DNA of 64,000 nucleotides, taken from NCBI GenBank assembly GCA_963711835.1, contig CAVQFQ010000004.1, positions 1 to 64,000 on the forward strand. The letters run 5' to 3'. The position numbers and the translations under genes were made by a program. Positions within the stretch are counted from its first letter, which is position 1; every line of letters begins with the position of its first letter. Of the stretch, positions 3,924 through 13,964 are shown piece by piece. The notes under the pieces were generated by a model, which ran no database searches, was not told the DNA's origin, and saw only the letters and a program-made list of their open reading frames with translations. Source of the stretch: an uncultured delta proteobacterium (GTDB lineage Bacteria > Desulfobacterota > RBG-13-43-22).

Positions 3924-3935
3924 GAGGTGATGCCA

Positions 3936-4136
3936 ATGGCAACGAATCTCCAGATCGACGACACCCTGATCGCGAAGGCCGCCAAGCTTGGTGGCCACAG
4001 GACGAAGAAGGCCGCCGTTACCCATGCCCTGCTTGAGTATGTCCGCCATCTCCAGCAGCAGAAGGTCACGTCGCTGTTTGGAACGGTGGACTACGATCCA
4101 GCATACGACTACAAGAAGCAGCGAGCACACTCGTGA
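3936..4136 (+). CDS. vapB: VapB-family antitoxin
   Basis: MATNLQIDD..L..A..LGGHRTKKAAV..AL.EY ribbon-helix-helix pattern; GGAGG RBS; GTGA overlap with the PIN toxin. Confidence 0.85.
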   Translation: MATNLQIDDTLIAKAAKLGGHRTKKAAVTHALLEYVRHLQQQKVTSLFGTVDYDPAYDYKKQRAHS

Positions 4137-4549
4137 GAGTCTTGGTGGATACGAGTGTCTGGTCGCTGGCGTTGCGGCGGGGCGCAGCCGAGGGCGTCTC
4201 GGTCCCCGCCCAAGCGCTGCGGAGCCTGCTTGCGGACCATCGCATCCAGATGATCGGGCCCATCCGCCAGGAATTACTGTCCGGCATTCGGGACGAACGG
4301 CAGTTCGACAGGCTCGCCAAACACCTAGCAGCGTTTTCAGACATCCCGCTTGCCACCGACGACTACGTCACGGCTGCCAGGTTCAATAATCTGTGCCGGT
4401 CGAAGGGGCTCCAGGGCTCAAACACGGATTTTCTCATCTGCGCGGTCTCCGTGCGTCATGGCCTCGCCATCTACACGACCGACCGCGACTTCGCATCGTT
4501 CGCCAAACACCTCCCGCTTGTGTTGTACAGGCCGGAGGACCTTGTGTAG
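4133..4549 (+). CDS. vapC: VapC PIN-domain toxin
   Basis: VLVDTSVW, ELLSG, TDFLI, IYTTDRDF PIN acidic motifs. Confidence 0.9.
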   Translation: MRVLVDTSVWSLALRRGAAEGVSVPAQALRSLLADHRIQMIGPIRQELLSGIRDERQFDRLAKHLAAFSDIPLATDDYVTAARFNNLCRSKGLQGSNTDFLICAVSVRHGLAIYTTDRDFASFAKHLPLVLYRPEDLV

Positions 4550-4689: not shown

Positions 4690-4910
4690 GGGCCGCCGGG
4701 CGGTTTCAGAATCCGTCCTCCATTCGCCCTTCTCCCTGGAGACGATGCGGTACCGGGCGACGTCCGGGACGATCATCGACCAGTCGAAGATGCACCCGCT
4801 GCTGAAGCGGAACGTCGAGGTCTTCTCGGCGTGCGACTGGCTGGCGGCGCTCACCGCACACATCCCAAACGCGGGAGAGCATCTGGTGCGGTACTACGGG
4901 TCGTCGATCT
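4690..4910 (+). mobile_element. IS91-like (Y2) transposase C-terminal remnant
   Basis: PFSLETMRY...DWLAALTAHIPNAGEHLVRYYG resembles the IS91-type C-terminus; no N-terminus. Confidence 0.65.
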
Positions 4911-5151
4911 TCCCCTTGACACCGCCGTCCGGTGCGTCGGATACTCCGCCTTGACTTTGCGACACCGTCCGGGTCGTGCGGAGGCGAGGGCCGGCGCGGT
5001 TCCGACGGACTCGCGGGGCGGCCGACCGCCGGGTGTCCATCGCCCGTGAGCCCATGGGGCGGGTTGTTGCGCCAGTCGCCGGTCAGCCTGGCCGTCATGA
5101 TATGATCAGCGGCACGGCACCATAAAAGCGGCCTGCAGAGGGAGGACCACC

Positions 5152-10619: not shown

Positions 10620-12026
10620 ATGGAAACGAACATGGGATCTCCCGGCGGCCTCCCCCACGAGTCCATTGCCGAAGCCGTGGCGCGATTCGCCGTCTCGCTT
10701 CGGTACGAGGCGGTGCCGTCCGCCGTCGTGGAGCGCGCCAAGCTCTGCCTGCTGGATTTCGTCGGCGTGGCCCTCGCCGGTGCGAAGGAGGCGCCCCCCC
10801 GCGCGCTGGGGGCGTTCGTGCGCGCGCAGGGGGGCGTCTCCGAAGGGGCCGTCTGGGGCTTCGGCTGTCGCGCGCCGGCCGGCCTTGCCGCTCTCTCCAA
10901 CGGCTCGGTGGGGCATCACCTGGAACTGGACGATGGCCACATCCTGGGCCATGTCCACCCCGGGGCGACGGTGATCCCCGCGGCCTTCGCCCTGGCCGAG
11001 GCGCGCAAGGCGAGCGGACGGGACCTCCTGACGGCGATCGTGGCGGGATACGAGGTCGTGATCCGGGTGGGCCGCGGTATCGCGGCCTCCGCCATGTACG
11101 ACCGCGGCTTCCACGGGCCGGGTCTGTTCGGGGCCTTCGGGGCCGCGGCCGCCGCCGCGGCCGTGCTCCGGCTGGACCCCGAGCGGGCCGCACACGCCAT
11201 CGGCAACTGCTGCCTCACGCCCGCCGCGACGTTCCAGGCCTTCACGGAGGGTGCGGGCATCAAGGATCTGTACTGCGGCTGGCCCGCCATGGTCGGGACG
11301 CTGGCGGCACAGCTCGCGGCGGCCGGCATCAGCGGCCCACGACTTCTCTTCGAAGGGAAGCTGGGTCTGGCCCGCGCCGTGGCGGACCGCCACGACCTCG
11401 GGAGCATCACGGCCGACCTGGGCCAGGCCTGGCTCCTCCCCACGGCCTACATCAAGCGCCACTCGGCATGCAGCTTCGCCCACACCATGATCGACGCTCT
11501 TCTCGGCCTGACTGCGGCCGGCCCCCTGGCACCGGAGCGCATTCAGCGCATCGGGGTGTTCACGCATCGTTTTGCGGCGGAACTCAACGACAGCTCCCCC
11601 GCGACGCTCACGGCGGCCAAGTCCAGCCTGCCGTTCTGCGCCGCCCTGGCGGCTTCCAGGGGACACGCCCTGCTCGCTGATTTCACGCCGGAGGCACTGA
11701 CCGACCCGGCGCTGCGGGCACTTGCCACGCGCACCACGATCTTCCTGGACGCGGAGCTGGACGCCCGGCATCTGGCCCGCGAGGATCGCCGCCCGGCCCG
11801 CGTCCAGGTCGTGCTCGCGGACGGACGGTGCCTCACGGCCGAGCGGGACGTCGCCCGAGGCTGGCCCGAGGACCCGATGACGGCGGGAGAAATCCGGGAC
11901 AAATTCCGGGCGCTGGTCGAGCCGGGCTACGGGTCGGAGATCGTTCGCGATCTGACGGACGCCGTCAGCACCCTCGAGGAACTGGACGACGTGACCGTCC
12001 TCGGGGGCGTCTTGGCGGCGAGCTGA
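10620..12026 (+). CDS. MmgE/PrpD family protein
   Basis: LLDFVGVALAG, ELDDGH..HPG, GYEV, RGFH, FEG..G, YIKRHSAC, RGWPEDP. Confidence 0.9.
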   Translation: METNMGSPGGLPHESIAEAVARFAVSLRYEAVPSAVVERAKLCLLDFVGVALAGAKEAPPRALGAFVRAQGGVSEGAVWGFGCRAPAGLAALSNGSVGHHLELDDGHILGHVHPGATVIPAAFALAEARKASGRDLLTAIVAGYEVVIRVGRGIAASAMYDRGFHGPGLFGAFGAAAAAAAVLRLDPERAAHAIGNCCLTPAATFQAFTEGAGIKDLYCGWPAMVGTLAAQLAAAGISGPRLLFEGKLGLARAVADRHDLGSITADLGQAWLLPTAYIKRHSACSFAHTMIDALLGLTAAGPLAPERIQRIGVFTHRFAAELNDSSPATLTAAKSSLPFCAALAASRGHALLADFTPEALTDPALRALATRTTIFLDAELDARHLAREDRRPARVQVVLADGRCLTAERDVARGWPEDPMTAGEIRDKFRALVEPGYGSEIVRDLTDAVSTLEELDDVTVLGGVLAAS

Positions 12027-12607
12027 GAAAGGCACGGAGGGCCGAGAGAGACCGACGGTCGGTCGAACCCTACTGCGGATCTGCGACCAGTTCGAACTGG
12101 TGGTAGTCGTCGATACGGCCGCTGACGATGCCGGCGACTACTCTGCCGGTGATCGTAGTGGGGGACGCCCTCAATTTGTTTACCTTATTCCACCCCTGAC
12201 CGCTCACCTGTGCGCCCCGGCCGCCGCCGGGTCCGGAGCCGCCGATGGCTTCGCAGTCCGCCCGGCAACTCGTCCCCGTCGTCGATCTTTCCTCTTGACA
12301 CATCACTACCAGGACCACGCTGAGCCTCCTCTGTATGGCGCCCTAAGTACACGCGGACAAATATTCGATGACGTATACATTGGCCTTACTTAAGACCAGG
12401 TCCCCCGGGCCGACCCGAGACGCCGCGCCCGCGGGTGAGCCCGTCCCCGGCACGGAGGTCCACTTCTGAGTGGACCGACCCGGGGTAAGGGCGAGCCGGC
12501 ATCGACGAGGCGCTAGGCGTCCGAGGGTCGGTCCGGGGGACCGGCGATACGTCACCGTAATTGCGGGCAGAAGCACTAAGACTCAGGGAGGTCGAGGACC
12601 TCGTGTA
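12027..12607 (+). ncRNA. Candidate large multi-domain structured RNA, family not recognised
   Basis: No credible ORF; many nested stems including an 18-bp stem 12399-12416/12525-12542; most non-WC pairs are G-U on the + strand. Confidence 0.5.
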
Positions 12608-12608
12608 G

Positions 12609-13163
12609 AAGTTTGATCGCTATGGCGCCCCTCTGGTGTTGAAACGAGATAACGGAGGGAACATGAACCATCTGGCCATCAACGAGGTGTTAGCTGAATC
12701 CTTTGTTCTGCCTTTGAACAACCCCGAGTATTATGCACCGTACAATGGAGCGATCGAGGAGTCGCAACGAGAGGTAAAGAGTTGCTTAGGCAAGAAGCTG
12801 ATGCAGGGCCTACTCGATCCCGGGGGGCATATCACTGCGTATGCGGAGGCTGCGGTCAACGATCTGAACCATCAGATCCGGCCTTGTCTAAATGGAAAGA
12901 CATCCTGCCAGGCGTTCTTTGAATCTGGCAATAGGCTGGCTTTTACGAAACGGAAAAGGAGGGAAATCTATGATTGGGTGCTGGAAAGGGTCGAGAGGAT
13001 CTTATCAGCAATGAGTCAATCCGGACAGGCTGTCAGAGACTCAGCTTGGAGGATCGCGGTGGAATCTTGGCTCCGATCTAAGGGGTTTATCAAGGTTCAT
13101 ATCAACCAAAAGTGTCACCCAATTTTATCCCCTTTTTTAGCTCATAATTAGGTAGCCTGAACA
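12609..13163 (+). mobile_element. 5'-truncated DDE (rve integrase core) transposase with right IS end
   Basis: RYGAPLVLKRDNGGN...PYNGAIEESQRE catalytic D/E region; stop at 13151; ends ...CCTGAACA like IS3/IS481-type termini. Confidence 0.7.
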
Positions 13164-13964
13164 AGGTTTGGGGTAGGATCTATAGTTTTTTTGCCAATGG
13201 TTTAAATCTCCTGGTGACCTGATAAGGAGTCGGGTGGCGCGGGGGAATTTCACCCCCACGCTCCCACAGAACCGGACGTGACGGTCTCCCGTCATCCGGC
13301 TCTTATCATCCAGCCGCCGGGCTAACCCAACGGTTTTATCTTATTCCCTGGCTCCTCCCATCGCTGGTTGACCAACCAATAAGACCAGATGATCCAACCC
13401 CTTCGCTCCATCCCCATTACAGGAACTTCCACACTACTACGAGTTGGTCCTCCCCCGTGCCCCGCATCGGTACTCTCATTCTTGTAGGGTCCTCCACTTG
13501 AATTTCTCCCTTAACATCGGGACGATCCCGCCCCGGCGGGATTCCATACAAGAGCCTGAATCAGGTTCGCGCTACCTCTATGCCGGATGCCGCCCAAGCC
13601 GTAAACAGGTTCCCCTTGAACTTATCCTGGAGATCAGTAAGTCCCCCAGTTTTGACATCATCCAATTCATTTCGACACCTCAGAAGTAGTTCGCTTGCGC
13701 TCGCCTCCCTGATCCTTACCTGACAGGGTCGTTGCCCTGCCTTTTCCTTAACGCTCACCACAATGGCTCTTAACCATCGCAGCTTAAGGTGGTTTGAAGC
13801 CAACTTCTGCAAGCCGGCTTCGAGGGACCTCCCCTCATCTCTTGTGCAGCTTCGTGGCACACTTACTGATTGAACTCTTTTCTTTTTCCAAAAAGGGAAG
13901 TTTGAGAACTTCAGGAAGGAGCCCTCAAGTTTCCTCGACAATTGCCTCTCCCCACTGAATTCAA
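13164..13964. repeat. Dispersed repeat family A copy split by the group II intron
   Basis: Joined flanks 13164-13228 + 13863-13964 align with the uninterrupted copy at 16009-16175. Confidence 0.75.
13229..13862 (-). mobile_element. ORF-less group II intron (634 nt)
   Basis: 5' end GUGUG; domain V GAGCCGGAUGACGGGAGACCGUCACGUCCGGUUC (13269-13302, AGC triad); domain VI ending ACCCGAC; no RT ORF. Confidence 0.9.

Follow-up and report, generated by a model that had tools for sequence, protein, structure and literature searches.

The stretch at positions 12027 to 12607 of the window (the whole 64,000-nt piece of DNA that was analyzed) is very probably a mosaic, composed of the tail of an oxidoreductase gene, likely remnants of mobile-element ends, and a nonautonomous element (MITE) of 230 bp. 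The sequence-only reading had divided the stretch into three domains and proposed that all 580 nt form one large ornate noncoding RNA of the OLE/ROOL/GOLLD type, a proposal that we now consider extremely improbable. The features are listed below from left to right.

10620 to 12026, + strand: MmgE/PrpD-family gene, here called prpD (Pfam PF03972/PF19305)
12027 to 12069, no strand assigned: spacer between convergent stop codons, with a hairpin at 12050-12064 (sequence)
12070 to 12153, - strand: 3' remnant of a FAD-dependent oxidoreductase gene, 27 codons plus stop, making up most of domain 1 (protein match)
12155 to 12224, no strand assigned: likely terminus of some mobile element, truncating the oxidoreductase gene (G521 match)
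12213 to 12342, + strand: likely 3' noncoding end of IS91-like (Y2 transposase) elements; domain 2 (weak matches)
12343 to 12347, + strand: left target copy, CTAAG (the duplicated TAA is 12344-12346 in the 3-bp reading; sequence)
12347 to 12576, + strand: MITE, 230 bp; domain 3 (empty site, copies, parents)
12347 to 12376, + strand: left terminal inverted repeat, 30 nt, the same end being found on full IS630-type elements
12399 to 12542, + strand: inner rod, ~145 nt, of seven stacked helices with purine-rich loops between them (covariation, model match)
12547 to 12576, - strand: right terminal inverted repeat, 30 nt
12576 to 12580, + strand: right target copy, CTAAG (the duplicated TAA is 12577-12579; sequence)
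12607 to 13163, + strand: 3' half of an IS known from the host's family, with a rve integrase core and an IS3/IS481 resemblance below cut-off (94% identity)

Origins of the parts

A sequence check confirmed every helix named in the sequence-only reading, and all non-Watson-Crick pairs inside these helices are G-T on the + strand. The 581 nt as a whole folded better than shuffled sequences, with a z-score of -4.0 on the + strand and -2.8 on the - strand, but this signal was uneven across the parts. Most of it came from 12347-12576 (z -6.9), within which the rod at 12399-12542 reached -8.3. None of 200 shuffles folded as well as domain 1 alone (z -3.05); domain 2 scored +0.3. When 12027-12346 was folded as one piece, the z-score was -0.18 and 41 of 100 shuffles were equally good; folding of 12155-12342 was not above that of shuffles. 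The Rfam check of the stretch gave no match at the gathering score and two junk matches (E 0.75-0.95). Rfam searches of the window, the region, the loci of three relatives, and six rod loci returned nothing relevant, the rod included. A tRNA/tmRNA search and a sigma-70 promoter scan were negative, and the region had no match in plasmid and phage collections.

The stretch had been described as lacking a credible open reading frame. Contrary to that description, the minus strand of 12070-12153 encodes the tail of an oxidoreductase, in which 20 of 25 residues are identical to residues 360-384 of the ORF at L013 (E 2e-11). This ORF belongs to the DAO family (PF01266), and the DNA there is 81% identical to the window over 90 nt. 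The DAO-family oxidoreductase whose C terminus matches is carried by genome G061. The match therefore places a 43-nt spacer after prpD, followed by the tail of a convergent gene; the hairpin at 12050-12064 is a possible terminator common to both genes. In the G061 homologue, the 16-nt palindrome of domain 1 is broken and the 11-bp stem is mostly retained. The helix said to close domain 1 is disrupted elsewhere: two DNA contigs from other metagenomes span 12155 and carry three 1-base deletions and one substitution in its right arm. Because of the broken palindrome in G061 and the right-arm deletions in these contigs, the moderate z-score of domain 1, as judged from sequence comparison, is real and yet does not reflect a unit conserved as such.

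A boundary lies at 12155. At the G521 locus, the similarity to 12155-12224 (89% over 70 nt; two matches with identical flanks, counted once) starts exactly at 12155, where a different ORF is cut. Two RNA-run contigs track the window from prpD to 12155 and then diverge, one of them continuing into other sequence. The next part, 12213-12342, has weak matches (E 3e-10 to 3e-3) located 100-200 nt downstream of Y2-type C termini at L145, L015, and L202, and the L202 ORF is an IS91-type Y2 transposase (PF04986). With a mean column identity of 55% and a window copy that has no transposase at 12213-12342, the assignment of this part to an IS91-like element end is likely, not firm. The same end probably resumes at 12581-12606, beyond the MITE. 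Positions 12219-12289 form a separate repeat, with a depth of 130-216 versus ~9 alongside in metagenomes X2 and X3. Elsewhere in the window, at 4694-4950, an IS91-type Y2 transposase remnant (4694-4900; 71% to the L202 ORF) is fused to its 3' noncoding end, and a -35/-10-like pair is present in this segment; a motif matching domain 2 follows the remnant directly, both together covering 4694-4922.

These observations bear on the single large RNA. The z-scores of the whole region (-4.0) and of domain 1 (-3.05), together with a stretch that no Rfam family accounts for, speak for it. Against it, the three domains differ in origin, copy number, and homologues. Domain 1 is mostly a coding remnant, domain 2 lacks a fold and is a repeat of its own, domain 3 is missing at an otherwise matching empty site, and the entire stretch is missing from the three closest prpD loci. 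Homologues each cover single parts, and more than one domain was seen solely in contigs of near-identical strains; no full-length conservation or covariation within a stable gene context was found. The likeness to OLE, ROOL, and GOLLD RNAs in size and dense pairing is superficial, and the stretch differs from them in being a mosaic with no Rfam match, no full-length homologue, and no conserved gene context. A partner gene lost at the break, which had been suggested, is unnecessary for explaining the stretch. Retron, 6S, SRP, group I/II intron, hammerhead, and omega/HEARO RNAs were considered by their features and dropped, since Rfam supports none of them and domain 3 is accounted for by the empty site.

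The high-GC block and its junction with the host contig

Contig C4 begins with the window, whose first 12 kb have 64-72% GC versus 53% for the genome. The tetranucleotide distance of this block is 0.116 to loci of the G061 phylum versus 0.54 to the host. On these measures, the 12.6-kb block, with prpD as its last gene, is foreign to the host genome. The break that the sequence-only reading had placed at ~12607 is exact: host-family IS DNA starts at 12607 and is 94% identical to intact IS copies in 3 of 20 family genomes (G016, G017, and G012). The 5' half of this IS is absent from the whole G000 assembly. The further suggestion that the stretch could be foreign to both flanks is correct for the right flank, which is the host-family IS, and wrong for the left, since prpD and domain 1 are contiguous in contigs of other samples.

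At 12606/12607, a contaminant block has probably been joined to the host contig during assembly, giving a chimera. It is unlikely that the 12.6-kb block entered the host by a real rearrangement. The junction does lie between two mobile-element remnants, where genuine rearrangements occur, but the block opens its contig, as high-GC sequence also does in C5, C7, and C11. In addition, a separate lysA (30% identical) is present elsewhere in the host, the 5' half of the IS is absent from it, contamination is estimated at 6.4%, and among the contigs listed none bridges 12607. The other high-GC starts in G000 are C5:1-~70000, C7:1-~9000, and C11:1-~4000; in tetranucleotide use, the starts of C5 and C7 differ strongly from the host and that of C11 is intermediate. 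These starts are probably further chimeric or contaminant blocks.

Two other features of the window were recorded. An ORF-less group II intron of ~634 nt (Rfam RF00029, RF01999) lies at 13229-13862 on the minus strand, with a second copy (93%) at C4:87678-88329; ~20 nt upstream of the 5' end are common to both. At 3933-4549, the translations contain a small gene pair resembling the antitoxin and PIN-domain toxin of a toxin-antitoxin module.

For sequence scans, the stretch is a caution that a coding remnant and nested repeats can mimic a large ornate RNA, and the mimic here sits probably on the contaminant block of a chimeric contig.

The MITE and its IS630-family parents

The sequence-only reading had allowed for the involvement of a mobile element, and domain 3 is indeed a MITE with an empty site and many copies. 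In metagenomes X1 and X2, the empty site joins 12342 to 12576, skipping 233 nt, and 5 letters at the joint fit both sides. The terminal inverted repeats are imperfect, with 17 of 30 positions matching between the ends and the inner 8 nt perfect. We collected 36 distinct full copies of 162-311 bp, whose flanks are unrelated beyond CTWAG. The flanking triplet is preceded by C in 35/36 copies and followed by G in 34/36. In 28 copies TAA or TTA is found on both sides, and the triplet is the same in 26 of these 28 (P = 1.5e-6, the copies being not fully independent); 9 of the 36 MITEs have unequal triplets. The element thus combines inverted repeats, a target duplication, an empty site, short gene-less dispersed copies, and an autonomous IS with the same ends. 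The long-range pair proposed between TACACG (12348-53) and CGTGTA (12602-07) would join the left end of the MITE to flanking DNA, its last base coming from the host IS.

The element is widespread. Parts of the stretch are contained in 20 public runs from 17 studies, mostly of sediments. Metagenome contigs accumulate over 12355-12582; their loose ends fall at 12576-12580 and have mixed flanks. Depth over 12412-12582 is 500-2000 in two DNA runs, versus ~10-20 on prpD. The excess of the element over prpD is ~25-35x in RNA-run contigs versus ~50-100x in DNA runs, contig depth being unable to rank expression. The right-end pattern was found at 83 metagenome loci and in 18 of 201 genomes of the G061 phylum. 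Viral contigs had no match to three element patterns and held one parent-type transposase.

A full element of 1,278 bp with the ends of the MITE occupies L078:461-1738. Its transposase passes the NCBIfam IS630 model NF033545 (111 bits, cut-off 100) and contains PF13358. Full elements of 1,275-1,278 bp at L221, L223, L229, and L230 have matching TWA on both sides; the triplets of the complete parents at L078, L228, and L173 are unequal. Close relatives of the L078 element were found in 13 of 201 genomes. The search for a close parent transposase was negative in four of the five MITE-rich genomes and in G000, which weighs against present activity. The MITE was most likely mobilized in trans by an IS630-family transposase. 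Such a transposase would bind the 30-nt ends, excise the element, and insert it at C-TWA-G with a 3-base stagger, by analogy with cut-and-paste transposition of ISY100. At L078:1742-1970, a MITE stands back to back with the full parent, with one target copy between both, and in G187 two parents are in tandem with a single triplet between them at two loci (L236 and L238). At six further loci (L019, L035, L093, L113, L116, and L126), the same CTWAG-type ends surround a different, REP-like palindromic filler.

The duplicated sequence reads equally as 3-bp TWA (with G..C ends) or as 5-bp CTWAG (with T..A ends). Because sister MITEs with CTAG flanks have the same GT..AC termini, the comparison favors the 3-bp TWA duplication. 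ISY100 reportedly prefers CTAG. IS630 and ISY100 duplicate TA (PMC2170065), whereas these elements duplicate TAA or TTA inside C..G; the parent resembles them in its HTH and DDE_3 ORFs and imperfect inverted ends, as do the sister MITEs of the same genomes in their CTAG flanks. As the duplication is TAA/TTA within CTWAG, with the empty site 233 nt shorter, and not the TA of canonical IS630, we class the parent, which otherwise works like IS630, as a target variant: its transposase belongs to the IS630 family, and its target is CTWAG, not TA.

Among known repeats, the MITE can be compared with RUP of Streptococcus pneumoniae (with IS630-Spn1), ERIC, and Correia elements. It has in common with them a short gene-less form, terminal inverted repeats, a duplicated target, the same ends as an IS630-family IS, a long stem-loop, and a mostly intergenic location. 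They are described as ~100-200 bp, A+T-rich, and TA-bounded (PMC2229807), whereas this element is 230 bp and G+C-rich, with TWA duplicated in a CTWAG target and a core that is not derived from the parent IS and recurs in other end types. Long stem-loops are typical of bacterial MITEs (PMC2229807, PMC3184786). In the literature searched, which covered little of the subscription journals, we found no published description of the element, of a CTWAG-targeting IS630 group, or of the rod spanning IS ends.

The rod inside the MITE

The pairing predicted for domain 3 belongs to a genuine covarying structure with a + strand bias. The rod model R1 matches the window at 12383-12553. When 20 chosen copies that lack inserted modules were aligned, 93.6% of cells were paired and 22 of 51 pairs had changes on both sides. 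None of 500 shuffles reached this pairing, slid controls were 34-53% paired, and RNAalifold agreed; the shuffle counts are not probabilities, given that the aligned sequences are relatives and themselves supplied the structure. On the + strand, 53 cells are G-T versus 12 A-C, a count inflated by the related sequences, and the minus strand of 12347-12576 folds almost equally well (z -6.0). Short hairpin modules of ~25 nt bounded by GGGTACCC replace ~4 nt in rod loops at L021, L033, L091, L161, and L164 and also occur in other palindromes (L126, L205, and L360); they are possibly a mini-insertion family of their own. In sequence, the rod loops resemble kink-turn motifs, in which a 3-nt bulge plus tandem G-A/A-G pairs bend the helix and bind L7Ae-type proteins.

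Compensatory changes in long DNA palindromes can arise without selection by template switching. It is accordingly conceivable, if doubtful, that the fold of the rod is not selected and that palindrome repair, through template switching and conversion between copies, keeps the stems of an old MITE core paired. This would suit the concentration of covariation in the long outer stem (12/18 pairs) and the tip (5/9 pairs), the similar folding of both strands, and the homogenization of copies within genomes. Such repair, however, should erase asymmetric loops, yet these rank among the most conserved positions, and it would not alone yield the G-T excess, even with the inflation by related sequences.

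The rod was missing from full IS copies at 16 loci, where the only match was the MITE beside L078. The rod model matched one copy in G000, 7 of 150 genomes of the G061 phylum, and 17 of 66 genomes of the G225 order; none was found in 149 other genomes of the host phylum or in 150 of the G062 phylum. These large searches scored 18-42 candidates per genome. A gene-bearing parent of the rod was not found among 20 partial or weak model matches or 9 extra right-arm matches. Likewise, 79/108 flanking ORFs were scanned and contained no recurring partner gene, two of them being transposases. By crude ORF calls, which give a weak picture, 33 of 46 upstream ORFs are co-oriented with the rod and 34 of 62 downstream ORFs are convergent.

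The rod is not confined to one kind of transposon end. Among 50 loci inspected, it lay within at least four end types (TWA, CTAG, GTAA..TTAC, and TG..CA), even within one genome, and further end sequences beyond these also enclose rods. The types were read by eye from script output, as automatic end finding misplaced many ends. The GTAA..TTAC type, with 8-bp duplications, was seen at L124, L264, L311, L318, L324, L325, L331, and L332, and the TG..CA type, also with 8-bp duplications, at L284 and L289 of G232. At the latter two loci the MITE ends are ~60-80 nt, with TG..CA termini and internal repeated boxes, and presumably resemble IS21-type ends. The GTAA..TTAC sister ends may be of the IS66 kind; at three PF03050 loci, GTAA..TTAC ends were not seen within the stretch covered. 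Genomes G225 and G226 have 40 and 46 rod matches, but the exact right-end motif of the type seen in the window occurs there 4 and 10 times; the remaining rods lie in CTAG-type and GTAA..TTAC ends.

Several observations connect the end types. At L314, a TWA-type left end is combined with a GTAA-type right stem. The tip hairpin tracks the genome and not the end type, being identical across types in G232 and nearly so in G225/G226 (45 rows were classified, with many GTAA-type copies absent). The outer stem differs by end type yet remains paired. At L305, L311, L318, and L324 (G225 and G226), a decayed CTAG-type end sits inside the outer repeat of the GTAA-type right end, which suggests that new ends were added outside older ones in GTAA-type MITEs. 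The rod would pass between end types by recombination among copies and by capture of new outer ends; because it moves between end types, it may outlive any one transposase.

Could the rod itself be the mobile unit? It might be a DNA palindrome of the REP/REPIN kind, inserted into empty IS-end pairs by a HUH (RAYT-like) enzyme, and we regard this as improbable. The same IS630-type ends do enclose other palindromic fillers, the rod boundaries are similar in all end types, and Y1 transposase genes exist in the lineage (L130). Yet the outer stem, the expected recognition site, changes completely with end type. Moreover, no Y1 (RAYT) gene was found beside any rod among the flanking ORFs scanned, and nearly all inspected rods lie within IS-like ends, which are less clear at L186, L193, L199, L354, L355, and L358. 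The likeness to REP, REPIN, and BIME sequences is that they are G+C-rich intergenic palindromes in many copies that serve as targets and carriers of other elements (PMC3184786); unlike them, the rod is ~145 nt with seven helices and lies in IS-type ends with target duplications.

In a long form of the rod, a side branch at the kink-turn-like position carries an insert that is always 37 nt long and varies in sequence; it was seen in 14 distinct copies (from 17 rows, of which 3 were mis-parsed and left out). The loci are L016, L128, L190, L192, L194, L198, L199, L275, L280, L295, L352, L360, L361, and L364. This branch is one argument for a functional small RNA that would serve an unlinked protein as adaptor, decoy, or guide, with several MITE families as its vehicles. 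The G-U bias of the + strand, loops conserved in sequence while stems are replaced, and extra hairpin modules that land in loops and not in stems point the same way. Against it, there is no free-standing single-copy locus with conserved neighbors, no partner gene was found, and the window copy has no such branch and no sigma-70 promoter. The inserts do not match their own flanks (mean longest match of 6.2 nt versus 6.5 nt for the flanks of other copies), and two of the 14, one searched in phages and one in plasmids, found nothing. We judge a functional small RNA to be improbable. The narrower version, in which the long form is a programmable adaptor or guide RNA for a distantly encoded protein, riding unrelated MITE families, with the window copy as an insert-less short form, is slightly less probable again. 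A guide role for the insert has no support, as own flanks match no better than those of others. IS110 bridge/seek RNAs, whose variable loops match target or element ends and which have a linked recombinase, were set aside on the missing own-flank match and on flanking ORFs that include no recombinase.

The rod likely spreads, by the comparisons made here, as a passenger and not as a host gene. Of the readings of the rod, our main one, held tentatively, is a passenger with a selected fold. Selection would maintain its fold on the + strand, most likely in RNA that arises by read-through of neighboring genes, and the self-contained folding would make an insertion tolerable, with no dedicated job for the host.

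In the usual view, a MITE core is a decayed remainder of its parent IS. Here, the core is missing from the parent, conserved by compensatory change, and common to elements that differ in ends and duplication lengths within one genome. If this picture holds, the long-lived unit would be a folded cargo that switches transposase families, and what selects that cargo then becomes a testable question.
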